Source: Planctomycetota bacterium
Lineage (GTDB): Bacteria > Planctomycetota > Planctomycetia > Pirellulales > Pirellulaceae
Direction of reading: 5' to 3'
NCBI GenBank assembly: GCA_024276655.1
Contig: JAJRWU010000135.1
Span: 1 to 37,719 of the forward strand
DNA length: 37,719 bases
Both the position numbers and the translations under genes were made by a program. The notes under the pieces were generated by a model. The model saw nothing but the letters and a program-made list of their open reading frames with translations, was not told where the DNA came from and ran no database searches. Of this stretch, positions 3,855 through 37,719 are shown piece after piece; within the stretch, counting starts at the first letter, position 1; the number at the start of each line of letters is the position of its first letter.

Positions 3855-5228
3855 TCATTTCGGCGCGACTTCTTCCTTGGGTTCTTCCAATCGGACGAGA
3901 AGCCATTGCTGCGTTTGGCCGTCCTCGAAATGCAGCAATACGGGCGTGGTGTCTTGCGTTAGGTTCGAGATGCCCGTTTCCATGATCGGCCATTGCTTGC
4001 CGGCGACGCCCCAGGCGGAACGCTGGCTTTTCTGATCGATCATTCCCTCGATGGGCTCCGATTTTTCAGTGGCCGTGTTCTGGAACGTTCCCGCGATGAT
4101 GCCCTGTTTGTTGACGGCCAACTGCAGGAATAACGTTGGAGGCGGCCCCGATTTCTCGCCATCTTGCGTTACGGCGAACACGCCCAGCGGCATCCAGTCA
4201 ACGGCGTCGTCCACTTCGGGAGCGCTGGCGGCAATGGCCTGCGCCTGTTGGGCGTATTCGTCGGCCGAGGCGACGGCGTTCTCCCCGTAGTAAACGGTGT
4301 CGCCTTCATAATAAACGTTCTCGCCATAGCTGTAGGACACCGGCTCGCTCCAGCCCCACGGGAGCCAACCAGTCACTAGCCCCCAAGTGGCCCAGCGATA
4401 AGGACGATTCCAACGCCATCGCGCCCAGTTGGGGTGGCCTTTCCAAAAGTCATGACGTGGATGATAATTATGAAACTGGTTGCGCACTTCATCGCGACGG
4501 CCCTGGCGGCTCCCCAATCGCTCCTCGCGATTAGCGATTCGGTCGGGACGATTTCCCACCAAGTCACCCGGTCGGGGGCGAACAGGATCAATGCCAGGAC
4601 GCAGCCCTGGCCGCTGAGCGGGAAGTTGGGCGGGGCGTTGGCCGGCGTTGGGCAATTGGCCCGTCGCGGGTCGGTTTTTCAGAAATTCAGACGCCGCTCC
4701 GCCGGCGCCGGGCCGTGTTGCGGGAAGCGTTCCCGGCCTTCCTGTTGAGGGCCGGGAAGGATCCAAGAAGTTTTGCAATTGCCCTTGCGATGGCCGTCCG
4801 CCAACGCTGGGCCGTGTTCCCGCTCCGGGGCGCGTTGCGGGATTGCTGGGGCGTCCGCCAACACTGGGTCTTGTTCCCGCTCCGGGTCGCGCTACTGGGT
4901 TACTTGGCCGTCCGCCAACACTGGGTCGTGTTCCCGCGCCGGGTCGCGCCGCGGGACTGCTGGGGCGAGGACTGCTGGGGCGATGGGCCGGCCTTGCCGA
5001 GGGACGGCTAACAGACGGAGTGCGGCTAGGCGCCGAACGCGAATGGCCGCCGCCACTGAAACCACCTCCACCCCGACTGCCGCCCCCACCGCTGAAACCG
5101 CCACGGCCACCGCCTCCTCCGCCACGACCACCGCCTCCTCCGCCACGGCCGCCACGGGCTTGAACGTCGTTTGAAGATACAAAAATAACGATTGAGAATG
5201 CGATGAGAAAATATGCGAGCTTGTTCAT
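3855..5228 (-). CDS. Secreted Gly/Arg-rich, Pro/Ser-rich repeat protein with a globular C-terminal domain
   Basis: Signal peptide, then GGRGGGGGGRGG runs, three 19-aa repeats (ARPGAGTRPSVGGRPSNPV) encoded by 57-bp tandem DNA repeats, and a non-repetitive Trp-rich C-terminal domain. Confidence 0.6.
   Translation of the reverse strand: MNKLAYFLIAFSIVIFVSSNDVQARGGRGGGGGGRGGGGGGRGGFSGGGGSRGGGGFSGGGHSRSAPSRTPSVSRPSARPAHRPSSPRPSSPAARPGAGTRPSVGGRPSNPVARPGAGTRPSVGGRPSNPATRPGAGTRPSVGGRPSQGQLQNFLDPSRPSTGRPGTLPATRPGAGGAASEFLKNRPATGQLPNAGQRPAQLPAQRPGLRPGIDPVRPRPGDLVGNRPDRIANREERLGSRQGRRDEVRNQFHNYHPRHDFWKGHPNWARWRWNRPYRWATWGLVTGWLPWGWSEPVSYSYGENVYYEGDTVYYGENAVASADEYAQQAQAIAASAPEVDDAVDWMPLGVFAVTQDGEKSGPPPTLFLQLAVNKQGIIAGTFQNTATEKSEPIEGMIDQKSQRSAWGVAGKQWPIMETGISNLTQDTTPVLLHFEDGQTQQWLLVRLEEPKEEVAPK
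4796..4966. repeat. Three imperfect copies of a 57-bp tandem repeat inside the Gly/Arg-rich CDS
   Basis: Units start at 4796, 4853 and 4910, each with GTCCGCCAACRCTGGG. Confidence 0.8.
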
Positions 5229-14895: not shown

Positions 14896-15228
14896 TTGAC
14901 CGAACAGCAGTGGTCGTTGATTCAGGCCTTGTTGCCCTCGCCAAAGAATCGCCAAGGAGGACGGCCCCGCACCGTTGCGATGCGGGAAGTCGTCAACGCA
15001 ATCATGTATCTCAATCGCACAGGCTGCCAGTGGGACATGCCGCCTCACGATTTGCGCCCTAAAATAAAAGTACTGTCTACGATTACTTCGCACAGTGTGG
15101 CGCGACGACGGAACCAGGACCGCCATTGTCACGGCGCTTCGCGAGCAGATTCGCGTTCAGGAAGGTCGCCTATCGACCCCCAGCGCCGCCTGCATCGACA
15201 GCCAATCCATCAAGACCACCGGCTAATG
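14896..15228 (+). pseudogene. IS5-family (DUF4096 N-terminal type) transposase remnant, frameshifted and truncated
   Basis: MTEQQWSLIQALLPSPKNRQGGRPRTVAMREVVNAIMYLNRTGCQWDMPPHDL matches the IS5/IS4-family transposase N-terminus. Two frameshifts are needed to read TVYDYF and WRDDGT...SAACIDSQSIKTTG. The DDE domain is absent. It ends abutting a copy of the TIR-type repeat. Confidence 0.7.
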
Positions 15229-15253
15229 GCTGGCAAGCCTCCGGCTTGGCGGG
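15214..15253 (+). repeat. Family-2 repeat end (GACCACCGGCTAATGGCTGGCAAGCCTCCGGCTTGGCGGG) at the transposase remnant
   Basis: Homologous to the inverted ends of the element at 33233-33435, to 20085-20151 (reverse complement) and to 166-191. The homology continues about 45 bp further, shared with rc 20030-20084. Confidence 0.6.
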
Positions 15254-15285
15254 AATTTCAACACACCATTGCACGGAATATCTCT

Positions 15286-15341
15286 TGGACAGCGCCTAAC
15301 TGGACAGCTCCTAACTGGACAGCTCCTAACTGGACAGCGCC
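15286..15341. repeat. 15-bp tandem repeat TGGACAGCKCCTAAC, about 3.7 copies
   Basis: Seen directly. Encodes the NWTAPNWTAPNWTAP run in a spurious ORF. Confidence 0.8.
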
Positions 15342-15429
15342 AGGTTCTCCGTTTTTCAGATATGTTGTGGTCCAGTTTGACGTGCTATCACAACATGCTG
15401 TGGTTTTTCTGGAAGATGGCGCTGTTCAG

Positions 15430-15699
15430 CTAAGCCGCCAGCCGCACCGGCTTTTGTTCCTCGAACAAATTCACGGTGCGCAACATGGCGCCGTCTTCGT
15501 CGTAGAATTGCAGCAGGCCGACGTCGATCATCCACATGGCCATGAAATCGCCGCAGCGGTAGGAATGAGCGCGAACCTTGCCGCTATCGACCAGGAATGT
15601 CTCGGCGACGCCGCCGGGCATTGCCACATCGGCGCCCAATTCGAGAAAGGTGCGGGCGACAATCAGTTTCACTTCGTGAGAAAAAGGGGCGACTCTCAT
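15430..15699 (-). CDS. Hypothetical small protein (89 aa)
   Basis: ORF with an ATG start. A small palindrome GCAATATCCTTATTGC overlaps the start region. No known motif. Confidence 0.35.
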   Translation of the reverse strand: MRVAPFSHEVKLIVARTFLELGADVAMPGGVAETFLVDSGKVRAHSYRCGDFMAMWMIDVGLLQFYDEDGAMLRTVNLFEEQKPVRLAA

Positions 15700-16140
15700 T
15701 TCGCAATATCCTTATTGCATAATGGCTGGCGGCGTCCTGCCGCGAATAGCCTGGTAGTGTAGCAACAAGGCGTTTCCACACCTAGAACAGTTGTGCATCG
15801 CCTACGAGTGTTATCGTCGGTGCAACGGTCGGTCATCGCGAGAATGCGTTTGCCCGTCTCAAAACGGAGAATTGATCCATTTTCCGCGCTAAGACGGCTG
15901 AAAACCGTGTTGAACGCGAAGGATACGCAAAACAGGAGCAACAGGAAGGATTTGCGGAATTCAAAAGATAGTGCAGTTGAAGAGGATTGCCGGCCGTGCG
16001 GCATCTGTTCGGCGCGTCGCTGAAGCAGGCCGATGGCGGGATGCCGCCTCAGGCGTTATGATGTTGGCGTACCTCCGAAAGGAAGGCCGGCCAGGGTAGG
16101 CCGGCCTCTATCCCGCTCCCCCTCGAATCTCAACAGAATC

Positions 16141-21436: not shown

Positions 21437-21483
21437 AAAGCCGTGGAGTAATGGTTACCGATTATGATGCGGAAAAGCCCGGC

Positions 21484-21512
21484 ATTTTCAAAATGCCGGG
21501 CTCATGATTCGA
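21484..21512. terminator. Palindromic hairpin terminator, family copy 3, shared by the convergent PRMT-like and csrA genes
   Basis: AAAAGCCCGGCATTTTCAAAATGCCGGGCT. Confidence 0.6.
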
Positions 21513-23505: not shown

Positions 23506-24405
23506 ATGTCCTTGGGGCGTCTCTGTTTGGGGCGTTTGTCTTGTTTGTGTTTGCTGATATCGGCCAGCGGCTGTATGTCGCTTCCGTGGCGCGCGGCGCC
23601 CGATGATGTACTAGCCTCGCGTCGGCTGGCCAATGAGGGCATCGGTGCGGGCCAGGCGGGCGACTGGGCGGCCGCCGAAACTTTTTTCCAAAAGGCGGTC
23701 ACGGTCTGTCCGGACGATGTCCGGGCGCACGAGCATTATGCCGAATCGTTGTGGCGGCGCGGCGAGCAGCAGGCCGCGATGGCCGAGCTTGAAGAGGCGA
23801 TTTCGCTTTCCAATGGCGATTCCAAGCAAATGGTCCGATTGGGTGAAATGCATTTAGCCCAAGGGCAGATGGAACTCGCCAAGCAGCGCGCCGAGGAAGC
23901 GATCGCGCTGCAGCCACAACTCGCGCCGGCTTGGGCGTTGCGAGGCGACGCATTGCAAGCGATGGGCGAATCGCGTTTGGCGTTGGCGAGTTATCATCGC
24001 GCCTTGAGCTACCAGCCCCTGTTCCCGCAAGTACAGGTGCGCATTGCGGAAGTTTACCTAGCGCAAGGACGCCCGCAACGCGCGCTCTCGACGCTCGATG
24101 CCTTGGCGGCGCAACTTCCCGATGGGCAGGCGTCGTCCCAACTTTGGTTCACGCGAGGACTCGCCCTCAAACGCATGGAACGCTACAACGACGCCATCGA
24201 AAGTCTGCTGGCGGCCCGCGTTCGTAGTGCGGAATCGGTCGATTTACTCTATGAATTGGGTGACGCCATGCTCCTGGCCGGCGATATCGCCGGCGCGCGA
24301 TCGGTCTTGAAAGACGCCCAGACTTTCGACGCCCAGCACCCCGCAAGCCATCAGCTTGCGGCGCAATTCTCCCAGCACGCCGCCGTCCGTCAAACACTGC
24401 GGTGA
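23506..24405 (+). CDS. TPR-repeat lipoprotein
   Basis: Signal peptide with lipobox-like LISASGC. Several TPR units (AHEHYAESLWRRGEQQAAMAELEEAI...). Start at the ATG at 23506. Confidence 0.6.
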   Translation: MSLGRLCLGRLSCLCLLISASGCMSLPWRAAPDDVLASRRLANEGIGAGQAGDWAAAETFFQKAVTVCPDDVRAHEHYAESLWRRGEQQAAMAELEEAISLSNGDSKQMVRLGEMHLAQGQMELAKQRAEEAIALQPQLAPAWALRGDALQAMGESRLALASYHRALSYQPLFPQVQVRIAEVYLAQGRPQRALSTLDALAAQLPDGQASSQLWFTRGLALKRMERYNDAIESLLAARVRSAESVDLLYELGDAMLLAGDIAGARSVLKDAQTFDAQHPASHQLAAQFSQHAAVRQTLR

Positions 24406-24424
24406 AATAATTCGGTAGGATTCC

Positions 24425-24988
24425 ATGGGTGATATATCGGCCCCCAAGCCCGTTCTGTTGGTATTGCCGGCGTTCAGCGCCTCGCGGGCGACGTTGCAAT
24501 GGGCCTTGCAGCGGGCGACGGAAAAATGGGGGCCCCCCGTTCTGGAAAGCGAGTACTTTTCGTTTGACCAAACCAGTTACTACGAGCGGGAAATGGGGCC
24601 TGAACTCAAGAAAGTGATTTGGGCTTTTCCGCAGTTGGTCGATCCCTCGGAACTCGCGTCTATCAAACGCCTTACCAACGATTGGGAGCAGCAGGCCGCC
24701 AGCCGGGGAAGGGCCGTCGGTCAGCAAGAAGAGGCCGCTGTCGCGCGGCCGCTGAACCTCGATCCTGGATTGCTTAGCGAGGCAAAATTGGTTTTGGCCA
24801 CAACAAAGGACCGCGACCATCGTATCTATTTAGGACAAGGCATTTTCGCCGAAGTCACTTTGTATTATCGCAAGGGCGCCTGGCGCTCGCGCGATTGGAC
24901 CTACGCCGATTACCAACGCCTGGAGTATCATCAATTCTTCATGCGCTGCCGCGATTACCTCCGGCAGGTCGGCCGCTCGAAGCGTTGA
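24425..24988 (+). CDS. Conserved hypothetical protein (possibly DUF4416-like)
   Basis: 187-aa ORF lying between the TPR lipoprotein and the WecA-like gene. The family assignment is from memory only. Confidence 0.4.
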   Translation: MGDISAPKPVLLVLPAFSASRATLQWALQRATEKWGPPVLESEYFSFDQTSYYEREMGPELKKVIWAFPQLVDPSELASIKRLTNDWEQQAASRGRAVGQQEEAAVARPLNLDPGLLSEAKLVLATTKDRDHRIYLGQGIFAEVTLYYRKGAWRSRDWTYADYQRLEYHQFFMRCRDYLRQVGRSKR

Positions 24989-25155
24989 AACGGCTGGAAA
25001 AACAGAAAAAGAATTTGATAAGAATGCATACAACCACCGCTCATGCAGTTGAAGATTGTATATTTCCAGTTCATGGAGTTCATCGCCACAATTGCTGACG
25101 GGCCCGCTGCGGCGCGTCGTTTTTTCCCCGGCTCATTTTCCCTCGTTCTTCTTCC

Positions 25156-26307
25156 ATGACTTCATCTGTTCCGCTGTTGTTCGTTCTTGGCTGCTTGGCG
25201 CCTGGAATGCTGATCGCCTGGTTGGCGGGGTTTGTCGTGCGCCGCTTCGCGCCGAAGTGGGGGCTGGTCGACCAACCGGGAAAACGCAAGGTGCATCAAA
25301 CGCCCACGCCCATGGGCGGCGGGCTGGCCATTTGGCTGGGCGTGATGACCGCCTTCGCCGCTGGGCAGTTCGTTCTTTGGGCGGCCGCCACCGAGAGCGG
25401 ACAGGCGAGTTTTGGCTTTGTCGGCGAGATGCTCCCCGACTTTGCACGTCCTCATTTGAGTGGCGCCTGGCAGCAGACGCCGAAATTGTGGGGCCTCTTG
25501 GCGGCGGGCACGGCCATGATGTTTCTGGGCTTGGCCGACGACCGCCTGGGGCTGCACTGGAGCATTCGCCTGGGAGTGCAATTCGGCGTGGCGGCGGCCT
25601 GTGTGTTCTTCCAAGGTTGGCGCCTGACCGCCTTCATTTCGTCGCCCTGGCTGACCGGCGCCATGTCGGTTGTTTGGATCGTGGCGTTCGTCAATTCCTT
25701 CAACATGCTCGACAACATGGACGGCCTCTCCGGCGGCGTGGCCGTGATTGCCGCCTCCTTGTTCGCCACCATGCTGCTCACGGCGCCGATCGAAGCCGGC
25801 GGGCAACCTCAACTATTCGTGGGCGGATTCCTGCTGGTGTTGGTCGGCGCGATCTTCGGATTTTTGTGGCACAACCGAACGCCGGCGAAACTTTTCATGG
25901 GCGACGCCGGCAGCTACTTCATCGGGTTTTCCCTGGCAGCCGCAACGCTCTTGGGAACCTTCACCACCTTCGATTCCGATCGGCCGTACTCCGTGTTCGC
26001 GCCGCTGTGCGTGATGGCCGCGCCCATGTACGATATGATTTCCGTGCTCTGGATTCGTGTTCGTGAAGGACGCAGCCCCTTTGAAGGCGACAAAAGCCAT
26101 TTTTCGCATCGGTTGGTCGACTTGGGCATGTCTAAAAGCAACGCGGTCTGGACCGTCTACCTGACCACCGCCGCCTGCGGATTTGGCGCGTTATTGCTGT
26201 ATCAGGCCAGTCTCGCCGGCGCGATGATCATTCTTCTACAAATCGTTTGCCTGCTGGCGATCATTGCTATTTTGGAATCGACGGCGAGGCGCCACATCAG
26301 GCGATAA
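25156..26307 (+). CDS. Polyprenyl-phosphate N-acetylhexosamine-1-phosphate transferase (GT4 WecA/MraY family)
   Basis: Motifs VHQTPTPMGGG and NSFNMLDNMDGLSGG (the N..D.MDGL signature of the family), in a multi-TM protein. Confidence 0.75.
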   Translation: MTSSVPLLFVLGCLAPGMLIAWLAGFVVRRFAPKWGLVDQPGKRKVHQTPTPMGGGLAIWLGVMTAFAAGQFVLWAAATESGQASFGFVGEMLPDFARPHLSGAWQQTPKLWGLLAAGTAMMFLGLADDRLGLHWSIRLGVQFGVAAACVFFQGWRLTAFISSPWLTGAMSVVWIVAFVNSFNMLDNMDGLSGGVAVIAASLFATMLLTAPIEAGGQPQLFVGGFLLVLVGAIFGFLWHNRTPAKLFMGDAGSYFIGFSLAAATLLGTFTTFDSDRPYSVFAPLCVMAAPMYDMISVLWIRVREGRSPFEGDKSHFSHRLVDLGMSKSNAVWTVYLTTAACGFGALLLYQASLAGAMIILLQIVCLLAIIAILESTARRHIRR

Positions 26308-26309
26308 GC

Positions 26310-28595
26310 ATGGCTCGCCGAAAATCTGAAACCAAACGCGAAAAATCCGCAGCGGTGAATCCGCCGCGAAAACGGCAAACCGCCGCGACGCTCCTCCTGG
26401 CGGCTCTCGTGGCGTTGTTTGTGGCGACGCCTCTGGTTGCCAGCGAAACGGCCTCTGAAAATGGCCACGGCCTGCTCGTGATCATGCTCTGGATGTTACT
26501 CCTTCTGGGCTGGCTGTTGCATGGCGTATTGCAAGGAGGGCTGCGATTACGTTTCGGCCCAACGGAGTGGATGGTTTTGCTGTTCGTGGCCTGGATGGCC
26601 GCCAGCACTCTCGTGATGGACGGCCAAGGAAACGCCCGCGCCGCGATCAACGGATTTTGGCGTTGGGCGAGTTTGGCGTTGGCGTTTTTTCTCACTCGGC
26701 AACTTGTTCGGTCGGCCGAGGCGGTGCGCGCCGTGAGCCTAGTGATGACCGCCTTGGCGGTCGGCCTCTCGATTTATGCGTTTTACCAGTTTTTTGTCAC
26801 GGTTCCGGCCACGCAGCGAATGTTCGCCGACGATCCGGCCGGCGCGATGCGCGCCGCCGGCTTCGATCCTCAAGACGAAGTCGCGCGTCGGATGCTGATC
26901 GATCGGGTCATGAGCCACGAACCGACGGCCACCTTCGCGCTGACAAACTCACTGGCCGGGTTTCTCGCCGCCTGGCTGACTTTTCTTATCGGCCGCACCA
27001 TGTGGAAACCCGAGCGGCGGCGCGGCTGGCTGGCCCTGGGCGCCGCGATCGGTTGCATCTTGATTCTTGGCGGATGTTTGTTGTTGACCAAGAGCCGCAC
27101 CGGCATGATTGCGTCGGCCGCCGGAGTTGTACTGTATGGGCTACTTTGGTTGCGCTCGCTGGGTGATCGGGAAATTTCCTGGCGAGGGCTGGGAGCGAGC
27201 GCCGCGGCGATTATCGTGGTCTGCGTTTTAGGCGTTGGCTTGGCGGTGGCGGTGGGCGGCATCGATCCTTTGGTGATCAGCGAAGCGCCGAAAACGCTGC
27301 AATATCGGCTTGAGTATTGGCGGGCGACCGCCGCCATGATCGCCGAACATCCACTGTTCGGCTGCGGTCCTGGAAACTTTCAAGATTATTACATTTCGCA
27401 TCAGCTTCCGCAGGCCAGCGAATCGGTTGCCGATCCTCATAATTTGTTCTTCGAGGTATGGGCCACCGGCGGCTCGCCGGCGTTCTTTTTTTTCCTGGGA
27501 TTTTTGGTATGCATGGGGCGGCGTTGGCGTTCGCTGGGCGGCGTCGCCGAGGGAGAGCAAGGGAATGAAAACAATGGCGTTCCGGTTGCCGGCCATGAGT
27601 GGGCCGTTTATGGAGGCGCCGGCGCGGGGGTGTTGTTGAGCTACCCGTTGGGTTTGATGGTCGGCTTGGCGCCCGAGGCGTTTTTCTTTTTGGCGAGCTT
27701 TCCGCTGGGAATAGGCGCCGTCGTGTTGTTGCGCACCCAGCCTCTGAACGCGACGGTGCTTGAAACGGTGCTTGAAACGTCGCTGGCGGTGGCGTTTGTG
27801 GTGTTGTCGATCAACTTACTGGCCGCCGGCGGGATTTCATTTCCCGGCGTGGCCGGAAGTTGGTGGCTGTTGGCGGCGCTCTGGCTCAACCTGACCGATC
27901 CGCCCCAGACCGAGTTCGATCTGACGCCCCGCCGCGTGTTGCTAGGGTTGGCGATGGCGACGGTGGGCATGCTGATTTTTTATCGAACTGCTTTCATGCC
28001 CGCGCTCACCGCGCCGGCGATACTCAGCGACGCTCAAGTCGCCGAGCGATTGGGCCAGCCGCAAAACGCCCACAAAGCGTACCAGCAAGCCTGCTTGATC
28101 GACCCTTGGAGCGCGGTTTATCCGGCCCGCTTGGCGAATTTTGCCTTCCGGCAATGGCGGCGCACGCATGCCGACCAAGATTGGGCGGAATTCGAACGGG
28201 CGGCCGATCTCGCGTTATCTCGCAATGCGCGCTCGCGGAGTCTGCGGAAATCGGTTGCGGAAACCTACTTGCAGGCTTACGCTTTGAGTGGCGAAGAGGT
28301 CCGACTGCAACAGGCATTGCAACAATATCGGGTTTTGGCGGAATTGGCGCCCAACAGCAGTTATTCCCACGCCCAATTGGCCTGGGTGCTGCATCTTGCC
28401 GGAAAAAAACGCCAAGCGGCGGACGAAGCCGCTGAAGCACTGCGGCTCGACGCGCTGAATCCGCACGCCGACAAAAAACTCTCCATTTATTCAGCGCCTA
28501 ACTCGCCTCAGCCCAATCCCCAACAGCCCCGTCCTCAAAAGGGGGGCGAAACTCTCGAACAAGTGATGCAAAGATTGCGTAGTACAATACACTAG
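26310..28595 (+). CDS. Wzy_C (O-antigen ligase / O-oligosaccharyltransferase-like) membrane protein with C-terminal TPR region
   Basis: Polytopic membrane protein with LTKSRTGMIASAAGVVLYGLLW and the periplasmic-loop motif DPHNLFFEVWATGG typical of the O-antigen ligase / Wzy / PglL family. C-terminal TPR-like helices. Start 3 bp after the WecA-like stop. Confidence 0.6.
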   Translation: MARRKSETKREKSAAVNPPRKRQTAATLLLAALVALFVATPLVASETASENGHGLLVIMLWMLLLLGWLLHGVLQGGLRLRFGPTEWMVLLFVAWMAASTLVMDGQGNARAAINGFWRWASLALAFFLTRQLVRSAEAVRAVSLVMTALAVGLSIYAFYQFFVTVPATQRMFADDPAGAMRAAGFDPQDEVARRMLIDRVMSHEPTATFALTNSLAGFLAAWLTFLIGRTMWKPERRRGWLALGAAIGCILILGGCLLLTKSRTGMIASAAGVVLYGLLWLRSLGDREISWRGLGASAAAIIVVCVLGVGLAVAVGGIDPLVISEAPKTLQYRLEYWRATAAMIAEHPLFGCGPGNFQDYYISHQLPQASESVADPHNLFFEVWATGGSPAFFFFLGFLVCMGRRWRSLGGVAEGEQGNENNGVPVAGHEWAVYGGAGAGVLLSYPLGLMVGLAPEAFFFLASFPLGIGAVVLLRTQPLNATVLETVLETSLAVAFVVLSINLLAAGGISFPGVAGSWWLLAALWLNLTDPPQTEFDLTPRRVLLGLAMATVGMLIFYRTAFMPALTAPAILSDAQVAERLGQPQNAHKAYQQACLIDPWSAVYPARLANFAFRQWRRTHADQDWAEFERAADLALSRNARSRSLRKSVAETYLQAYALSGEEVRLQQALQQYRVLAELAPNSSYSHAQLAWVLHLAGKKRQAADEAAEALRLDALNPHADKKLSIYSAPNSPQPNPQQPRPQKGGETLEQVMQRLRSTIH

Positions 28596-28624
28596 GATCT
28601 ATTCGAGAGCATGTTTGCCGAGTT

Positions 28625-28658
28625 AAAAGCCCGGCATTTTCAAAATGCCGGGCTTTTT
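28625..28658. terminator. Palindromic hairpin terminator, family copy 4
   Basis: AAAAGCCCGGCATTTTCAAAATGCCGGGCTTTTT. Confidence 0.6.
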
Positions 28659-28695
28659 CAGTTAATAATCCGGTTTACTTTGAAGAAGGTTTACG

Positions 28696-29883
28696 ATGAA
28701 AGTTTGGACGCTCCTCCTGGTTGCCCTTTTGGCGGGCAGCGCCATGGGCTACGGACAAGCGCGGCTGGAATTCGACGGACTTGCAAACAACAGTCTCCCA
28801 GGAGATGCCTGGAACACCGGCGCCAAAAAAACGGACTCCGGCGAAATACATAGTTCGGGGCACGTGATCGTTTTAGAGGGAGACCACTACGATTTCGGTT
28901 CGATGCAGCGAGGCGCCACTCTGAGCCACGTATTCGTACTCAAGAATGTTGGTTCGATGCCGGTCGGCTTGAAAAAAGGCAAAACCACTTGCAAATGCAC
29001 GTTCAGCGCCTTGGATAAAGACACCTTGATGCCGGGCGAAACCTGTGAAGTGGAAGTGGAGTGGACGCCCAAGTCGTACTCCGATGAATTCCTGCAAACC
29101 GCCGAGATCAAAATAACCGAAGCCCTCGCCCAGGAATCTATTCAGTTGAAAGTTGGCGGACGCGTCATTCAGGTCGTCCGACCGGTGCCCCACGAATTAA
29201 CGTTCCATAATATTTCCTCCAACGGAGATTCGTCGGCGCTGCTGCGAATTTTCAACTTTACCGGCCAGGCATTCAAAATTCTGGGAACCGAGTCGGTCGA
29301 GCAGGCGACCGCCGACCGCTTTGTTTACACGATTGAGCCGCTTTCGGAACAAGAATTGGCGATGGAGGGAGAAGCGCTTTCAGGAATCGGGATTCGAGTC
29401 ACGATCAAGCCGGGCCTGCCTTTGGGGCCGATTAAGCAAGTGGTCCGCGTGCTGACGAGTATTAAAGAAGGCAAGGAGATTTTAGTCCCCATCAGGGGCA
29501 CGGTCGTGAGTGATATTTCCGTGATGGGCGGCTCAAATTTTCACAAAGACCTGGGCCTGCTTAATTTGGGAATCATCGACCGTTCCGAGGGCGGCAAGGC
29601 GACGCTGCACCTGTTGGTGAAAGGGCCTTATCGACACGACGTTCGCATGAAAGTGGCCTCGACCGACCCAGCCGACATTGTCAAAGCGCATATTGGCGAG
29701 CCCAAGGAGATCAACAACGGCTTGGTCATTATGTACCCGCTCGAAATTGAAATTCCCGCGGGAAGCCCGGCGGCAAACCACTTTGGCTCACAGCAGGGCG
29801 AATTCGCAAAAATTTCGATCCAGACCACGCATCCCACCGCGAAGTCGGTTCCTTTGTATCTGAAATTCCTCATCAGCCGCTGA
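28696..29883 (+). CDS. Secreted DUF1573-domain protein
   Basis: Signal peptide. N-terminal YDFGSMQRGATLSHVFVLKNVGSMPVGL matches the DUF1573 core (DFG.V..G......F...N.G...L). Confidence 0.6.
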   Translation: MKVWTLLLVALLAGSAMGYGQARLEFDGLANNSLPGDAWNTGAKKTDSGEIHSSGHVIVLEGDHYDFGSMQRGATLSHVFVLKNVGSMPVGLKKGKTTCKCTFSALDKDTLMPGETCEVEVEWTPKSYSDEFLQTAEIKITEALAQESIQLKVGGRVIQVVRPVPHELTFHNISSNGDSSALLRIFNFTGQAFKILGTESVEQATADRFVYTIEPLSEQELAMEGEALSGIGIRVTIKPGLPLGPIKQVVRVLTSIKEGKEILVPIRGTVVSDISVMGGSNFHKDLGLLNLGIIDRSEGGKATLHLLVKGPYRHDVRMKVASTDPADIVKAHIGEPKEINNGLVIMYPLEIEIPAGSPAANHFGSQQGEFAKISIQTTHPTAKSVPLYLKFLISR

Positions 29884-29919
29884 GGCGAGCGCCAGATAAA
29901 AATAATTCACCAACGGTTC

Positions 29920-31200
29920 CTAACGGCCGCCGACCCGATGAATCGTTCGTAAAATTTCGGGGTTGCGCTCGGTGTTGGCCAACTCCCGGATGCGTCGCAG
30001 CAGTTGCGGGTCGGTGCTGGTGGCCATGAGCGAGATGGCGGCCGCTCTTACCGGGGCGCTTTCATCCAGCGAAAGCCATAGCAGCCAGGGTCGAACATCA
30101 ACGCCGGTCATGCTTGGCAGTGCGTTGGCGAAACCGAGGCGGTCTTTTTGGTCGAGCGCTGTGAGCCGTCTGGCCAGCCCGAGTTGGTTCTGGCTGAAAC
30201 CGCGCCGGCGCAATTCCGACGCGGCGCGCGTGGCCACGGCGTCGTCGGGATCGTGCAACAGCCGCATCATTTCCAACTCCCCGAGGTCGGTTAGGAGTTG
30301 CGCCGCGGCGATGGTTGTGGTTTGGCTGGCTGCTTTATCGGTTGAAGCGCGCGCCGCCCGCAAACGTTTCATAAACAGTGGCGGGTCGAGTCTTGCTGGA
30401 GGAGGGTTCAAGGGTTGCGGCTGTTTCTCGCCCAACTCCAATTGCAGCGGCTCCGATTCGTCGACCGGCGCCTGTTTGCGACGCAACGGCCGCGGCCTCC
30501 TTGCCACGGGCGCGGGCATTGCGGGTAACGCGACTACTTCCAGTGGTAATTCGCCGCCCGGCGCTGCGAGCATTGCGGCGGCGGGGTCGAGCAAGGGGGC
30601 GTCGGGAAGCGTTCTCGACGTTGGGTTTTCTGGTGCGGTGTTATCGTTTTTCGCGTTTGCCCGCGACGCTACCGCGATGGGCGCGACGTCGGTCAGTTGG
30701 AGCAAGCGTTCGCAATTCGCCACCAGGGCGCCGACGTCGATACTGTTTTGATCGACACTGTTTTGATCGACCGGCCAAAGCAGAACCTGCGTGGCCAGAT
30801 TCGCCGCGTCTTGCCGGGCTTGGGGGTCAAAGTTTTGGTGCGACTTGTTCAGCGCCGCGATCAAGTGTTCGATTCGGCGGCTCGACTCCGCCGGCTTGAG
30901 CAACCGCCAGCGGTCGAGCGTTTCAAAGATGGCTGTCCGCGCCGCCGACGACACGCGCGGCCGCTGGTCGGCCAGCATCGCCACGACTTTGCCAACTCCT
31001 GGTTCTCCGGCGCTGGCCAAGGCGCGCATGTGGGGCAGCGTTTGCTGTTGGTCGGCTTGTTCAATCTCGCGAACAAGTTCGGCCACGAGAAGGTCGGTGG
31101 GCCGCCAGCCGGGCGAGCGCAGAATGCCCACGCCCAAGGCAATCATGCCGCAAGCCAGGAGCAAGCCGCCGACAATGCCGCCTTTCAAATTGAATGCCAC
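29920..31200 (-). CDS. Membrane-anchored HEAT/ARM-like repeat protein
   Basis: N-terminal TM segment and an Ala/Leu-rich helical repeat region. GTG start at 31200. Contains two copies of a 15-bp tandem repeat (VDQNSVDQNS). Probably co-transcribed with the GT39 gene 45 bp upstream. Confidence 0.45.
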   Translation of the reverse strand: MAFNLKGGIVGGLLLACGMIALGVGILRSPGWRPTDLLVAELVREIEQADQQQTLPHMRALASAGEPGVGKVVAMLADQRPRVSSAARTAIFETLDRWRLLKPAESSRRIEHLIAALNKSHQNFDPQARQDAANLATQVLLWPVDQNSVDQNSIDVGALVANCERLLQLTDVAPIAVASRANAKNDNTAPENPTSRTLPDAPLLDPAAAMLAAPGGELPLEVVALPAMPAPVARRPRPLRRKQAPVDESEPLQLELGEKQPQPLNPPPARLDPPLFMKRLRAARASTDKAASQTTTIAAAQLLTDLGELEMMRLLHDPDDAVATRAASELRRRGFSQNQLGLARRLTALDQKDRLGFANALPSMTGVDVRPWLLWLSLDESAPVRAAAISLMATSTDPQLLRRIRELANTERNPEILRTIHRVGGR

Positions 31201-31245
31201 GATGTTTCTCGCTATAACCGTTTTCTCACCATCAGAGGCGCAACC

Positions 31246-33138
31246 TCAGCGCGTGCTGGTCGTGGATACTTTGCTGGCCGACATTCGTTCGGCGCGGCCA
31301 ATCAATACCAGCGAGCGGTTTTTCATAAAGTACGGCGCCTCCGCCAGCACTTCGGAGTCGACCGGCAGGTACGGCTTCAAGGTTCGCCAATCGTTGGCCG
31401 GCGCGATAATAAATGCATCGGGATACTGCTCGAAGAACGCCGCAGCCGCCTGCGGCTCCTGGCCCGAGAACTCTTGCACCGGACGGCCTAGATAAAAGAC
31501 CCAACTCGGCTCCAAGACGCCGAACGCCGCCACGTGCGGTTGCTCGGAACGGCGGCCGACTTCCTCCAACAAGACGTGGCTCTGTTGATGCGAATCGACG
31601 CGCGCCGCCGCTATTGCGAAAACCGACGTCGTGAGGCAAACAGCCGAACCCGCGAACCAAAGCACGGCCTGTTCGCGAAGGTTGTGTTTGACCAAATACA
31701 AGCACCCCACGCCGGTCGCGAGTGGAATCAAGCCGATCAGCCCCAGCCATTCCTCGCCGGGCAAAAACTGACGCGCGGCCAGCGGAAGGCCGATCAAAAA
31801 CACCAGCCCGACCAAAACGAGCGACGCCAGCGAAAGTCGAGGCCAAAACTGGGCCACGTATTCCGTATGCTCGCGCCAGTGGTGCAGAAAGCAACCCACC
31901 AACAGCGCCAAGGCGGGAAAGCAGGGTGTTACGTAACTGGGAAGTTTGGTTTGCGCGAACGAAAAAAGGCCCACGTACACGCCAACCCAACAGGTCAGGA
32001 AAATATAGGCTGGGTCGGGCTGCGCCGATTTTCGCATTCTTGTGATCAGGTCGAGCAGCACCGGGCCGGCGAACACCGACCAGGGAAAGAAGCCGGCCAG
32101 AATTGCCACGGGATAATAAAATAGCGAGCCGGCGTGTCCTTCCATCGACGACGTCGCGCGTGCGATGTTGTGGGTCCAGAAAAATTCGGTCAGCCATTGG
32201 CCATCCGTTCGCAGCCCAACCCACACGTACCAAGGCGCCGCAATCAGGGCGACGGTCGCCAAGGCGGTCAGCGGACGCATTTTCCAACAGGTGCGGATAA
32301 AATGACGAGCATGGAACGGACGCAGCAGCGCCCAGAGCCGCGCCGCCAGCGTGGTCGGAGCTTGCGTTTGCTTCGGTAACGACACAATCAGTAAAAACAT
32401 GCCGAGCACCGCCGTGGGCAACACCAGCCCCACGGGCCCCTTGGCCAGCACGGCCAAACCCATTATGGCGTAAACCGCCACGGCTCTGGGAAAACTTCGG
32501 AGGAAGTAACGATCGGTTGGTTCGGTGGTTGGCGTGTCGCCGCCTTGTGCGGCGTTTGCCGAATTTTCTTTTTTGGGAAAGACGCCCAGCGCATAGACGG
32601 TCAGGGCCATTGAACTGAGGAAAATCAGCAGGTAATCGGGAGTGGCGGCGCGCGAGGCGACGTCGAACATGAACGTCGTCGCCAAAATCAGGCCGGCCAA
32701 CAGCCCCACGCGAGGATGGAACAGTCGTCGTCCCAGATGATAGACGGCAAGCACGCCGCCGGCGCCCAACAGAGCCGACCAAAACCGGGCCGCGAACTCA
32801 TTGACCCCGAACAGGCCGTACGACGTCATCATCAGCCAATATTGAAGAATCGGTTTGTGCGTGCGGTATTCGCCATTGAAGAGCGGCGTCACCCAATCGT
32901 GGGCGGCCAGCATTTCGACCGTGCAGCCGGCGTTGCGAGGTTCGTCGCGGTCCCACAAGCGAGGACCGCCCAGATTACTGAACAGCGAGAGCCCCGCCAC
33001 AAGCAGCAAGATCAAATGATGCCGAACCGATTGCGACACGCCACACCTCCCTGGGAAAACACAGCCGCCAATGCCTTGAGGCAAGACCGGCGAAGTGTAA
33101 GACGCCCCCGCCGAGATCACAATATCAGTCTGTTGCAC
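31246..33138 (-). CDS. GT39-family glycosyltransferase (ArnT / PMT_2-like)
   Basis: Multi-TM protein with the N-terminal loop RLWDRDEPRNAGCTVEML..DWVTPLFNGEYRTHKPILQYWL typical of ArnT/PMT-type transferases. The start is uncertain (GTG at 33138). Confidence 0.65.
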   Translation of the reverse strand: MQQTDIVISAGASYTSPVLPQGIGGCVFPGRCGVSQSVRHHLILLLVAGLSLFSNLGGPRLWDRDEPRNAGCTVEMLAAHDWVTPLFNGEYRTHKPILQYWLMMTSYGLFGVNEFAARFWSALLGAGGVLAVYHLGRRLFHPRVGLLAGLILATTFMFDVASRAATPDYLLIFLSSMALTVYALGVFPKKENSANAAQGGDTPTTEPTDRYFLRSFPRAVAVYAIMGLAVLAKGPVGLVLPTAVLGMFLLIVSLPKQTQAPTTLAARLWALLRPFHARHFIRTCWKMRPLTALATVALIAAPWYVWVGLRTDGQWLTEFFWTHNIARATSSMEGHAGSLFYYPVAILAGFFPWSVFAGPVLLDLITRMRKSAQPDPAYIFLTCWVGVYVGLFSFAQTKLPSYVTPCFPALALLVGCFLHHWREHTEYVAQFWPRLSLASLVLVGLVFLIGLPLAARQFLPGEEWLGLIGLIPLATGVGCLYLVKHNLREQAVLWFAGSAVCLTTSVFAIAAARVDSHQQSHVLLEEVGRRSEQPHVAAFGVLEPSWVFYLGRPVQEFSGQEPQAAAAFFEQYPDAFIIAPANDWRTLKPYLPVDSEVLAEAPYFMKNRSLVLIGRAERMSASKVSTTSTR

Positions 33139-33435: not shown

Positions 33436-33952
33436 TAACGAACTCTTGTCTGCAACGAACGCCTTCTTGCTTCAATCGGCGGCGCGAATCTGGCGTCCTG
33501 GTGAAAAAAATCTGGCGGGTTGTTGAATGACTTAGGGGAAGTCCCGAAATAAGATCCCTGAGCCGATGAGCGCTAGCTCACGGTTTACAGCATTCTCGGA
33601 GAACCGGACGCTAACGTGTTCCGGCTGATCTGCGCGGCGTGTTTGGCAAGAATAACCCGGATTATCACCCCGCTCAGTCCGAGACGAAAATACGGAAGGC
33701 TGCGCGTCGTTTCCAGAAATAAATTTTGATGGCTTTTTGACCGAATTCCGCTAGAATCACCCCTGCGCCACCCTTCCTTCGGGTGGGGCCATCTGGCCAA
33801 GGACAATAACGGGCTTTTTTTTACGAATAGCCTCTTGAATAGTTAGCAAACGGGTCCACATTTCTGTTGACGCCTTGCCGCGACACAATCTTCTGACGTT
33901 GAAGATTTTGGCTCGTTGCGGCCAGCGCGGTCAAACCATTAAGGAGGATGCC

Positions 33953-34567
33953 ATGGGTTGGGTTTTTTTGGTGTGCGGAACCGTCGGCGGAACATTTTTG
34001 GTGTTCCAGTTCGTCATGGCCATGATTGGCGTCGGAGGCGATGAACTCGATTTCGATGGCGGTGGAGATATTCCCGACGATTTTTCCGGAGAAGCATTCA
34101 GCGAAACCGGCGATGTGATTGACCACGGGTCAACGCTGGCGTTTCAGGTTCTATCGTTTAAGTCGATTGTGGCGGCGCTTACTTTTTTTGGACTCGCGGG
34201 CATTGCGGCGACGCAGTCCGAACTTGAGCCTCTCCTGACGCTCGCTATAGCGATATTCAGCGGCGCTGTGGCCATGTATGTCGTGGCGCTATTGATGAAT
34301 TCGCTCCATAAATTAAACCACGATGGCACGGTGCATATCCAAAACGCCATTGGGCGAACCGGCGCCGTCTATATTCCGATTCCGGGAGAGAGGTCTGGAG
34401 CTGGCAAAATCCAAATAAAGGTCCAGAACCGTCTCGTGGAATTTGCAGCCGTGACCGCCGAGCCGACCAAACTCTCCACGGGTGCTAGAGTTGTGGTGGT
34501 CGACGTCGTCGACTCCAACACATTGGAAGTTGAACTGGTCAACGAGGCCGTTGCCAGCGGCGGTTAG
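33953..34567 (+). CDS. NfeD-family membrane protein (flotillin partner)
   Basis: AAGGAGGA RBS before the ATG at 33953. N-terminal TM segments and a C-terminal OB-fold-like region. Immediately upstream of an SPFH/flotillin gene. Confidence 0.6.
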   Translation: MGWVFLVCGTVGGTFLVFQFVMAMIGVGGDELDFDGGGDIPDDFSGEAFSETGDVIDHGSTLAFQVLSFKSIVAALTFFGLAGIAATQSELEPLLTLAIAIFSGAVAMYVVALLMNSLHKLNHDGTVHIQNAIGRTGAVYIPIPGERSGAGKIQIKVQNRLVEFAAVTAEPTKLSTGARVVVVDVVDSNTLEVELVNEAVASGG

Positions 34568-34642
34568 TGCTGGGAGTCGTATCAGTCAGGCTGTTGGTCA
34601 GTGTCCGGTAATACGCGGTTAACCCTTACAGGAAATGCAGCA

Positions 34643-36307
34643 ATGAACATAGGTCTTCTCTTGGGACAAATTCCCCCCGGTAATGCGATGATAACCATCG
34701 CCGTGATAACGGTCCTCGTTCTCATGGCCATAATGACCGGCTTCGTATTAGTGGCAAAGCGTTACAAACGCTGCCCTAGCAATCGTGTACTGGTGGTTTA
34801 CGGTAAGACCGGCAAAGGCCAAGCCGCTAAGTGCATTCAGGGCGGCGCCGTTTTTGTTTGGCCGCTGATTCAAGACTACGCCTACCTCGGCTTGGAGCCG
34901 ATTCAAATTGAAGTTCCGCTCCGCGGCGCGTTGTCGATCGAGAACATTCGCGTGAATGTGCCCAGTGTGTTCACCGTGGCCATTGATACGAAGCCGGAAG
35001 TGATGCAAAACGCGGCGATTCGCCTGCTGGGAATGCACACCGACGAAATCCGCAAGCAGGCGGAGGAAATCATTTTTGGTCAGTTGCGCCAAGTGATTGC
35101 CTCTATGGGCATTGAGGAAATCAATCGTGATCGAGATATGTTCTTGGAACATGTCACACGATCGTTGGAGCCGGAATTGAACAAAGTCGGGTTGTCGCTG
35201 ATCAACGTCAACATTACCGACATTACCGACGAATCGGGCTACATTGACGCCATCGGCCAGAAAGCTGCTTCGTTGGCGATCCAACTCGCTCGGGGCGATG
35301 TGGCCGATAACCAAAAGATGGGTGAAATCCGCGTGGCTTCCGCTTCGCGAGATCAAGCGGTGCAAGTGGCCGAAGCACAACGCGATCAAACCATCGGCAC
35401 GCGGTCTGCGGAGCGGGAGCGAGCGGTGCAAGTGGCCATTCTGGAGAAAGAGCAGGCCATTGGCGAACGAACGGCCGTCTTCCGGCAGCAGGCGGAAGTC
35501 AAGGAGCAAGAACGCGAAATGCGTATTTCAGTGGCCGACGCCGACGCCACCGCCATTGACGGCGAAAACATCGCGCAGGCCAAGATCGCGGCTTCGCAAG
35601 CGGAATTGGCGGTCCGGCGGGCGGAAGCCTACCAGTTGGGTGAAGGCCGCAAGCGTGAAGCCGAAGCAGCGGTGTTGGAAGTTCAAAATAACGCCATGGC
35701 CAAGGCCGCCATCGCGGAAGCCGGCCGCGTGGAAGCCGAAAAACGAGCCGAACTGGAAGCTCCCGCCAAGGCCCAAAAAGCCCGCGTGATTGTCAACGCC
35801 GAAGCGGAAGCCGAACGCAAACGCATCGACGCCATGGCCGAAGCCGACGCCATCTTCGCCAAACTCGACGCCGAAGCCCGCGGCCAATTTGAAATCCTGG
35901 CCAAAAAGGGGCAAGGCCTGAAGGAAATCGTGTCGGCCTGCGGCGGCGCCAAGGAAGCCTTCCAAATGCTCATGCTCGAACACATGGACAACCTCGCCGA
36001 AGCCTCGGCCAAGGCGATCTCGAATATCAAGTTCGATAAGATCGTGGTCTGGGAAAATGGCGCCGGCGGCGATGGTCGCTCCAGCACCGCCGACTTCCTC
36101 AGCGGCATGGCCAAAACGTTGCCGCCGATGCTGCAAGTCATGAAAGACATCGGCGGTGTCGAATTGCCGGAAGCGCTGATCAAACTGACCGGCGAAGATA
36201 CGCCCGAAACGATGTCGGTCTCGCGTAATGGCGGCGTTCCGAAAACGGCTGCCGTGGCCGATGATGCTGCTCCCTCCGACGGCGCGCCGTCAGACGACGA
36301 AGCATAA
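34643..36307 (+). CDS. Flotillin-like SPFH (band 7) domain protein with a long Ala/Glu-rich coiled-coil tail
   Basis: N-terminal TM segment, then an SPFH domain (VVYGKTGKGQ...GGAVFVWPLIQDY...) and an EA-repeat coiled coil. ATG at 34643 with an AGGAAA RBS; the ORF-track start at 34601 is GTG. Confidence 0.7.
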   Translation: MNIGLLLGQIPPGNAMITIAVITVLVLMAIMTGFVLVAKRYKRCPSNRVLVVYGKTGKGQAAKCIQGGAVFVWPLIQDYAYLGLEPIQIEVPLRGALSIENIRVNVPSVFTVAIDTKPEVMQNAAIRLLGMHTDEIRKQAEEIIFGQLRQVIASMGIEEINRDRDMFLEHVTRSLEPELNKVGLSLINVNITDITDESGYIDAIGQKAASLAIQLARGDVADNQKMGEIRVASASRDQAVQVAEAQRDQTIGTRSAERERAVQVAILEKEQAIGERTAVFRQQAEVKEQEREMRISVADADATAIDGENIAQAKIAASQAELAVRRAEAYQLGEGRKREAEAAVLEVQNNAMAKAAIAEAGRVEAEKRAELEAPAKAQKARVIVNAEAEAERKRIDAMAEADAIFAKLDAEARGQFEILAKKGQGLKEIVSACGGAKEAFQMLMLEHMDNLAEASAKAISNIKFDKIVVWENGAGGDGRSSTADFLSGMAKTLPPMLQVMKDIGGVELPEALIKLTGEDTPETMSVSRNGGVPKTAAVADDAAPSDGAPSDDEA

Positions 36308-36352: not shown

Positions 36353-36385
36353 AAAAGCCCGGCATTTCCAAAATGCCGGGCTTTT
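36353..36385. terminator. Palindromic hairpin terminator, family copy 5
   Basis: AAAAGCCCGGCATTTCCAAAATGCCGGGCTTTT. Confidence 0.6.
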
Positions 36386-37467: not shown

Positions 37468-37620
37468 TTGTACACGTTCACGGGTTTGGAACCGCCGGAC
37501 AGATTGCTATCGCAACTCCACGCGCCTTGGGCGGAAATCCAGACGTCGCTCGGAGGTTTCTGGGCGGACATTTCAACGGTCGAGTAGAGGAGGAGCGTCA
37601 ATGACGCCCCTCCCCCCTCA

Positions 37621-37655
<35 letters not shown>

Positions 37656-37719
37656 ACCAAAGGCATTTCGTCGGTCGGCACACGCAGACTCAGAGGTCGC
37701 CACGGAGCTTCTTTAGTCC

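Follow-up and report, generated by a model that had tools for sequence, protein, structure and literature searches.

Whether the planctomycete envelope is a proteinaceous wall, a peptidoglycan wall detected late or a lipopolysaccharide (LPS) envelope has long been disputed, and a locus that sets a polyprenyl-phosphate sugar transferase beside a Wzy_C-domain ligase raises the question of which acceptor would receive the glycan. Such a locus is found in a stretch of 37,719 nucleotides from a Planctomycetota bacterium of the family Pirellulaceae (GenBank assembly GCA_024276655.1, contig JAJRWU010000135.1, positions 1 to 37,719), which as a whole is called the window below. An earlier note, made from the DNA letters and a list of their open reading frames (ORFs), had taken seven genes between 23506 and 33138 for a candidate protein O-glycosylation or surface-glycan locus. 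Our analysis reduces these seven to a conserved unit of four genes, encoding a DUF4416 protein, a WecA-like transferase, a Wzy_C ligase with a TPR tail and a DUF1573 protein, which we consider a probable module for ligating glycans carried on polyprenyl diphosphate. That the acceptor is a protein is our tentative preference.

A four-gene cassette conserved across Pirellulales

The genes of the cassette in the window are:

24425-24988, + strand: DUF4416 protein of 187 residues (DUF4416 Pfam match, E 3.9e-55)
25156-26307, + strand: WecA-like polyprenyl-phosphate N-acetylhexosamine (HexNAc)-1-phosphate transferase of the GT4/MraY superfamily, 383 residues (PF00953, E 1e-30, 107 bits)
26310-28595, + strand: WaaL-fold Wzy_C ligase of 761 residues (PF04932, 90.5 bits against a cut-off of 31.7; weak C-terminal TPR matches)
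28696-29883, + strand: DUF1573 protein of 395 residues (PF07610, E 1.7e-16; NCBIfam OS_HP2 (seleno)protein, E 1.7e-11)

All seven ORFs, with their strands and domain assignments as first noted, were recovered by ORF reading and by Pfam and NCBIfam profile searches. The Wzy_C ORF of 782 residues starts at a TTG that still lies within WecA; the likely start is the ATG at 26310, 2 nt past the TAA of WecA, which gives a ligase of 761 residues that matches the orthologues in length.

A search for the ligase family returned 344 matches at E <= 1e-5, and all listed matches that name an organism come from Planctomycetota. Scanning one genome per species gave 438 loci, the best 80 of which were examined; 79 had a named lineage, in every case Planctomycetota and mostly of Pirellulales type (Pirellulaceae, Thermoguttaceae, Bremerella, Blastopirellula and Ca. 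Anammoximicrobium). To count synteny, we searched 83 related loci from different species with the window proteins (tblastn) and used the loci that have enough flank as denominators; all 83 are from Planctomycetota and, wherever the classification goes further, from lineages of Pirellulales. The WecA-like gene lies directly 5' of the ligase gene in 49/66 loci and is itself preceded by the DUF4416 gene in 46/66, and the DUF1573 gene lies directly 3' of the ligase gene in 69/77. In 67/72 loci DUF1573 is followed by a gene for a UshA-like tetrahaem cytochrome of about 590 residues, which is absent from the window and from its closest counterpart, L004, a metagenome-assembled genome labelled Planctomycetaceae bacterium SZUA-33 that is 94-99% identical to the window over the locus. 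The full five-gene order including the cytochrome is found in 33/58 loci and the downstream half only in 16/58. The conserved unit across Pirellulales is thus DUF4416, WecA-like, Wzy_C-TPR ligase and DUF1573, and the pairing of WecA with the Wzy_C-TPR protein that the earlier note had singled out is a real one that recurs across relatives.

The same note had thought LPS O-antigen synthesis the poorer fit, and here too the neighbourhoods agree: the cassette sits among housekeeping genes, and its flanks in relatives are made up of housekeeping and various hydrolase genes (ProRS, RNase R, YebC, IF-2, RbfA, HrpA, peptidases and a sulfatase). Genes for LPS core, O-antigen, Wzx, Wzz, flippases or glycosyltransferases were found neither in the three neighbourhoods with called genes nor among the recurrent flank families checked (83 loci). 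The 37.7-kb window likewise holds no flippase, polymerase or further glycosyltransferase gene anywhere, as had been said of the surroundings of the pair, and no glycan-related genes beyond those listed in this text.

Fold, active site and topology of the ligase

The PF04932 match spans residues 271-417 of the 782-residue ORF. Searched as a single sequence against the PDB with phmmer, the ligase gives TPR matches only, and a family profile restricted to the transmembrane (TM) part was needed to reach WaaL, which is the sole membrane-protein match of that profile in the whole PDB (E 3e-8). In the profile alignment the motifs TKSR, YRLxYW, GCGPGNF and DPHN pair with LNGTR, VRLKIW, GVGVGQF and HAHN of WaaL. 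Three catalytic-type residues, R263 (TKSR), R333 (YRLxYW) and H377 (DPHN), are invariant in 40/40 and 28/28 sequences. They correspond to the Arg/Arg/His set common to E. coli WaaL (R215/R288/H338) and Neisseria PglL (R224/R298/H349) as described by Schulz et al. (PMC3643930).

An AlphaFold2 model of the ligase built with 40 homologues has a predicted local distance difference test score (pLDDT) of 85.6 and a predicted TM-score (pTM) of 0.88. Hydropathy, the helices of the model and positive-inside statistics over 40 sequences place about 15 TM helices in the protein and its N-terminus in the cytoplasm, with K+R values of 0-0.1 in the short outside loops versus 0.6-5.7 in the inside loops. The catalytic loop (residues 317-379) and the TPR domain (about residues 584-716) are both periplasmic, and the TPR tail is most similar to the TPR of OGT. 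The ligase also matches the pattern H[NSQ]x9G, which we take to be a WaaL motif. All three defining features of the Wzy_C superfamily that were tested are present: the domain score, a WaaL-type fold with a periplasmic loop bearing the catalytic His, and the R/R/H set. Because of the WaaL fold, the invariant R/R/H residues and the TM/TPR topology, the 761-residue protein is, as modelled, an enzyme of ligase type, extended by three TM helices and by a protein-interaction domain in the periplasm.

The position of the protein within the superfamily is less conventional. Against curated models the window protein scores 37 bits for IctB (TIGR00947, cut-off 366) and 16.8 bits for TfpM (NF058641, cut-off 600), and the RfaL model does not match it. 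Among 40 family members weak NCBIfam matches were obtained to IctB (32/40, best E 2.9e-15), TfpM (18/40, best E 2.9e-5), the exosortase-associated ligase (13/40), RfaL (6/40, best E 3e-6) and TuaE (3/40, best E 1.3e-9). Since the curated models match weakly and inconsistently across the 40 members, the sequences point to a Wzy_C superfamily member outside every curated subfamily, a separate, uncharacterised subfamily that is so far confined to Planctomycetota and has a distinctive architecture and distinctive gene partners.

The WecA-like transferase and DUF4416

Motifs ADD, NMLDNMDGL and LFMGDAGS can be read in the WecA-like protein, whose orthologues are 50-64% identical across the related loci and whose PDB relatives are MraY and GPT (about 1e-9). 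It stays below the cut-off of both curated models, with wecA (TIGR02380, 130.6 bits, cut-off 326) far ahead of mraY (TIGR00445, 53.8 bits, cut-off 192). With WecA it has in common the GT4 domain, the DD motif, NxxDxxDG and MGDAGS, and wecA is its best curated match; it differs in scoring under the equivalog cut-off and in its synteny with DUF4416, a pairing not known for enterobacterial wecA. The DUF4416 protein has no signal peptide and is cytoplasmic. Its structure model is confident (pLDDT 92) and suggests an HPPK-like alpha/beta fold, which we treat as a lead because the sequence methods applied to this relation gave no confirming match. Our literature search returned no paper mentioning DUF4416.

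Most mur genes, ftsW and ftsI are reported to be missing from Pirellulales and 'MraY' to be conserved (PMC12673574), and a review considers MraY probably present in all genomes of the PVC (Planctomycetes-Verrucomicrobia-Chlamydiae) group. Since the wecA score exceeds the mraY score, it may be this WecA-like gene that surveys of Pirellulales count as 'MraY', an idea that we offer tentatively.

The DUF1573 partner and a cytochrome in relatives

The DUF1573 protein had been called secreted and is more likely membrane-anchored, having an N-terminal hydrophobic helix with GxxxG in 73/75 orthologues. A variable linker of 27-49 residues is composed of Ser/Thr/Pro/Ala/Gly to 44%, versus 36% in the rest of the protein, and the Ig-like DUF1573 domain carries a CxC in 74/75 orthologues. 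A further conserved region is putatively assigned to more Ig-like domains, without a domain match. The protein has no match among PDB sequences, and profile searches gave only DUF1573/Ig-like matches and no transpeptidase or other enzyme domain; a literature search found nothing connecting DUF1573 to ligases. Selenocysteine (UGC) forms of the DUF1573 family have been listed (PMC9312934, PMC13188914), and because of these and of the OS_HP2 (seleno)protein match the CxC is probably redox-active. Cys352 of the ligase (GCGPG) was considered as a partner of this CxC and rejected, the position being occupied by Val in 8/40 and 6/28 sequences.

The cytochrome of the relatives (for example L001:13653-15326, L002:13848-15677 and L003:13600-15603) scores 190-220 bits against the NCBIfam model 'UshA-like (seleno)protein' (cut-off 275). 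It combines a PCGC motif and four CxxCH haem sites with a degenerate UshA/SoxB-like phosphoesterase domain, and some examples have a lipoprotein-like N-terminus. Together the CxC-bearing Ig-like DUF1573 protein and the cytochrome recall, by analogy, the logic of SoxB/SoxYZ/cytochrome systems.

This pair of proteins invites a different account of the ligase, in which a ligase-like protein would play an IctB-like role tied to a redox pair (the DUF1573 CxC and the PCGC of the UshA-like cytochrome) and the link to WecA would be secondary. The closest curated family is indeed IctB, which in cyanobacteria is also a lone Wzy_C protein conserved throughout its phylum; the ligase gene is linked more tightly to its downstream genes than to WecA, some loci keep the downstream half alone, and members of both downstream families occur with selenocysteine at the Cys motif. 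We nevertheless regard this account as distinctly improbable: the residues with which ligases bind undecaprenyl diphosphate and catalyse transfer are invariant here, the IctB score is about a tenth of its cut-off, and neither the window nor L004 has the cytochrome gene. The linkage with TPR, WecA and DUF1573 is particular to the planctomycete ligase family, which also shows DPHN where the IctB-containing cyanobacterial group has an NPNL pattern, the two being compared as motifs and not as aligned positions. Moreover, IctB itself has, to our knowledge, no established function.

Proposed mechanism

The combination of these proteins makes it probable that the cassette is a polyprenyl-diphosphate-glycan ligase module. 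On the cytoplasmic side of the membrane, the WecA-like GT4 enzyme would place HexNAc-1-phosphate, going by its family probably N-acetylglucosamine (GlcNAc)-1-phosphate, onto polyprenyl phosphate, and the DUF4416 protein beside it may have a nucleotide or a pyrophosphate as its ligand. To be lengthened and flipped to the periplasm, the glycan would depend on genes elsewhere in the genome, the cassette encoding neither function. The 761-residue WaaL-fold enzyme would then take the glycan off its polyprenyl-diphosphate carrier and pass it en bloc to an acceptor in the periplasm by way of Arg263, Arg333 and His377. Selecting or presenting the acceptor would be the part of the bitopic DUF1573 protein, presumably docked through its GxxxG helix, together with the TPR domain and the three extra TM helices of the ligase.

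A protein as a possible acceptor

Between a protein and a lipid A-core acceptor the sequence alone does not decide. Our leading candidate, put forward tentatively, is an O-oligosaccharyltransferase-like system, that is, a module transferring glycan to a protein acceptor, with DUF1573 as adaptor or first substrate. A protein is favoured because the context is one of housekeeping and not of LPS genes, because WsfB and PglL set a precedent for the TPR, because the logic of TfpW applies, because a periplasmic protein is conserved next door and because oligosaccharyltransferases tend to adjoin their targets. WsfB and PglL have been described with C-terminal TPR, and a separate TPR gene, wsaA, lies upstream of wsaB (PMC2943079). 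In TfpW, the GT-C pilin oligosaccharyltransferase of Pseudomonas aeruginosa, a periplasmic TPR is thought to engage the protein substrate, and O-oligosaccharyltransferase genes have been found beside the target gene in 21/31 cases.

With the Wzy_C O-oligosaccharyltransferases (PglL, WsfB/WsaB, TfpO/PilO, PglS, TfpM) the ligase shares the Wzy_C core, the three catalytic residues and a location outside LPS loci, and it adjoins the gene of a periplasmic protein as those enzymes adjoin pilin or ComP targets. It departs from them in that PglL_A is undetected and the TfpM match is weak, and in place of a pilin it has an Ig-like protein with CxC as its neighbour. TfpW, TMTC and OGT resemble it in the fusion of a glycan-transferring part to TPR, which in TfpW and TMTC lies on the acceptor side of the membrane. 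TfpW and TMTC differ in being GT-C enzymes of the ArnT/PMT type, which carry a DDX motif, take sugars linked to a monophosphate and lack the WaaL fold, and OGT is soluble. A preprint on anammox glycoproteomics names no transferase.

Several observations weigh against a protein acceptor. The closest and sole structural and sequence relative is WaaL, a result with a bias, as WaaL is the only superfamily member recovered from the structure libraries. TPR domains also serve as scaffolds in polysaccharide export. Work on such scaffolds is listed in the review cited above (PMC2943079). The PglL-specific model PglL_A (PF15864) has no match to the window protein at E <= 0.01, and the PglL_A-equivalent positions 429-430 are variable in the ligase family; since PilO/TfpO lack the PglL_A motif as well, its absence leaves oligosaccharyltransferase activity possible. 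The scattered subfamily matches of the 40 members all lie far below their cut-offs. The DUF1573 CxC falls at the selenocysteine position of OS_HP2 selenoproteins, and DUF1573 may belong to a periplasmic redox pair with the cytochrome and not to glycan transfer. Some relatives without DUF1573 beside the ligase still have the TPR tail, and in the window a strong terminator-like hairpin separates the ligase gene from the DUF1573 gene. Finally, planctomycetes make LPS and need their lipid A genes (PMC10632474), and a WaaL is therefore to be expected somewhere in the genome.

A profile and structure comparison with PglL and WaaL, which the earlier note had suggested as a check, thus gives a divided answer: PglL_A is unmatched, the sole solved relative is WaaL, and the R/R/H set is common to both enzymes. 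The reading of the locus as one for O-glycosylation is partly supported, with the WecA/Wzy_C-TPR pair, the TPR precedent and the non-LPS context upheld and the seven-gene extent and the GT39 argument (see below) lost; the missing PglL_A match and the WaaL identity of the sole solved relative speak against it as well.

LPS or another envelope polymer as possible alternatives

WecA is the classic initiator of O-antigen and enterobacterial common antigen synthesis. The Wzy_C-TPR protein might accordingly be the divergent WaaL of the order, joining to LPS either an O-chain primed by WecA or one unit begun with GlcNAc, with the TPR tail and DUF1573 as accessories that contact, for example, the Lpt or chain-length machinery. 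WaaL is the top structural and only sequence relative of the protein and its R/R/H set is conserved, lipid A genes are essential in planctomycetes, RfaL is weakly matched by some family members, and an ArnT-like, lipid-modifying enzyme is encoded nearby, in this window only. The identity to WaaL (Cupriavidus metallidurans, PDB 7TPG/7TPJ; E. coli RfaL) is 18%, and the protein is nearly twice the typical size (761 residues versus about 400) with the three additional TM helices and the periplasmic TPR domain. It is encoded outside LPS loci, next to a conserved bitopic Ig-like protein, and the neighbourhoods checked hold no LPS-core, O-antigen, Wzx or Wzz genes. In model bacteria, waaL and O-antigen loci are variable, unlike this family with its order-wide one-to-one conservation and housekeeping synteny; the ArnT-like neighbour, for its part, is not conserved. 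On balance we think a role as WaaL somewhat less likely than a protein acceptor and clearly worth keeping in view.

Improbable, in our judgement, is that the enzyme polymerises or attaches some other envelope polymer, such as a wall or holdfast glycan based on GlcNAc, and that the bitopic DUF1573 protein acts with it as in the SEDS-bPBP (class B penicillin-binding protein) pairs. The weak matches to TuaE, a teichuronic-acid polymerase, would agree with it, as would the GxxxG helix of the partner and the reported retention of 'MraY' in an order said to lack most mur genes, ftsW and ftsI, given that the GT4 enzyme of the window is WecA-like and not MraY-like. The invariant His in DPHN is ligase-type, however, and no Wzx- or Wzz-type genes lie nearby. 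The parallel with RodA-PBP2 is one of analogy only, DUF1573 having no transpeptidase or other enzyme domain match and the ligase having ligase-type rather than SEDS-type motifs.

A broader version, which we rate as very improbable, would make the cassette part of the missing envelope-glycan machinery of Pirellulales: the WecA-like enzyme would be the retained 'MraY', DUF4416 a (pyro)phosphotransferase of HPPK-like type with the lipid carrier or the sugar donor as its substrate, and ligase, DUF1573 and, in most species, the cytochrome would build or anchor a non-canonical, GlcNAc-containing wall component. Glycan transfer could then couple to periplasmic thiol redox chemistry.

Whichever acceptor is used, an order-wide WecA-plus-ligase unit with a periplasmic TPR and an Ig-like partner is a testable candidate for the decoration of surface proteins or LPS. 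For annotation, the Pirellulales 'MraY' may turn out to be a WecA-like gene, and DUF4416 and DUF1573 would gain a first functional context. If the acceptor is protein, the family would be a new O-oligosaccharyltransferase subfamily with possible use in glycoengineering; if it is LPS, the enzyme would be an unusual WaaL and the finding an ordinary one. Interest would be considerably greater should it prove to be the enzyme of planctomycete surface-protein glycosylation or part of a non-canonical wall pathway.

Neighbouring genes outside the cassette

The remaining three of the seven genes flank the cassette in the window:

23506-24405, + strand: TPR lipoprotein (matches to many TPR Pfam families, E down to 1e-23; lipobox in its N-terminus MSLGRLCLGRLSCLCLLISASGC)
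29920-31200, - strand: membrane-anchored HEAT-like protein, convergent with DUF1573 (weak HEAT_2 match, 22.6 bits, under the cut-off of 27.7)
31246-33039, - strand: ArnT-like GT-C glycosyltransferase (PMT_2/PMT) in its form of 597 residues (PF13231, 59 bits, and PF02366, 45 bits, both over their cut-offs)

The ArnT-like ORF as called runs over 31246-33138, and the start was set at about 33039 from a 597-residue database copy of the window's own protein; an exact look-up of this protein gave no record. That all seven genes, the GT39 (ArnT-like) and HEAT-like ones included, form one general protein O-glycosylation module has next to no probability in our view. They are adjacent in the window and in L004, with the TPR lipoprotein gene 19 bp upstream of DUF4416. 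In 82/83 loci, however, the GT39, HEAT-like and TPR lipoprotein genes are absent from the neighbourhood (for the ArnT-like gene, from within 10 kb of the ligase), and the GT39 and HEAT-like genes are convergent, on the opposite strand. Neighbourhood conservation, another check named in the earlier note, thus keeps the four-gene cassette and sheds the TPR lipoprotein and HEAT-like genes, which that note had counted as members and which stand beside the cassette only in the near-identical L004, together with GT39.

Nor does the GT39 gene lend support to protein O-glycosylation, as had been argued. Its product looks more ArnT-like than PMT-like: the nearest characterised relative is ArnT (PDB 5ezm, 6e-23), although the NCBIfam ArnT model scores only 109 bits, below its cut-off of 567. 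The orthologues are 45-55% identical and, where an organism is named, mostly from Planctomycetota. Two orthologue contexts were examined (L084 and L085); in one, genes for a response regulator of OmpR type and a histidine kinase come after it, and in the other it adjoins a PAP2 phosphatase. Because both contexts are unrelated to the cassette, the argument from O-mannosylation in Actinobacteria falls, and the contexts hint at regulated modification of a lipid (lipid A?) rather than at protein mannosylation.

Immediately downstream of the ArnT-like gene, at 33875-36307, lie a gene for a membrane protein that lacks annotation and any Pfam match but resembles NfeD by eye, and then a flotillin/SPFH gene. 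The L004 counterpart of this membrane protein is just 61% identical, though the cassette is almost unchanged between the two.

Hairpins, mobile elements and other features of the window

The hairpin between the ligase and DUF1573 genes is listed as follows:

28629-28653, no strand assigned: palindromic hairpin with T-run, terminator-like

It is one of three copies in the window (21477-21501, 28629-28653 and 36357-36381) of a perfect hairpin, GCCCGGCATTT(T/C)CAAAATGCCGGGC, bordered by runs of A and T, versus 0 copies expected by chance. Each copy stands just 3' of a + strand gene, encoding a methyltransferase, the ligase and flotillin, respectively. As RNA the copy at 28629 folds with -23 kcal/mol (z -6.2), and the two copies that were folded both have a z of about -6. 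None of the 85 fetched loci has the complete hairpin; one arm is left in L004. It may be a recent, possibly mobile, bidirectional terminator-like element. It was found through tandem-repeat output; a scan for consensus promoters and terminators did no better than on shuffled sequence and missed it.

At the stop codon of the ligase gene L004 carries an insert of about 119 bp (L004:5584-5710, versus window 28583-28595) flanked by the direct repeat ACAATACACTAG. The insert holds a long inverted repeat, CAGCCGCAGGGCGCTAGCCCACGG...CCGTGGGCTAGCGCCCTGCGGCTG, and has the appearance of an insertion like that of a miniature inverted-repeat transposable element. A group II intron match (RF00029, 52.7 bits, E 1e-7) at 37579-37657 on the - strand lies at the contig end, which suggests truncation at an assembly break. 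An IS4/IS5-type transposase remnant at 14896-15762, with the DUF4096 N-terminus only, is probably a decayed insertion sequence, and after it comes a 15-bp tandem repeat (15286-15341) that encodes NWTAP about 3.7 times.

Elsewhere in the window, at 480-2431, a gene for an H-NOX (haem-NO-binding) protein runs into the beginning of one for a hybrid histidine kinase/receiver protein, and the two are likely a sensing pair for nitric oxide (NO) or O2. A gene at 3855-5228 on the - strand encodes a secreted protein that has an N-terminal Gly/Arg-rich stretch, no Pfam match and three repeats of 57 bp (19 residues) of the RPGAGTRPSVGGRPSNP type, seen as a tandem repeat at 4795-4967.

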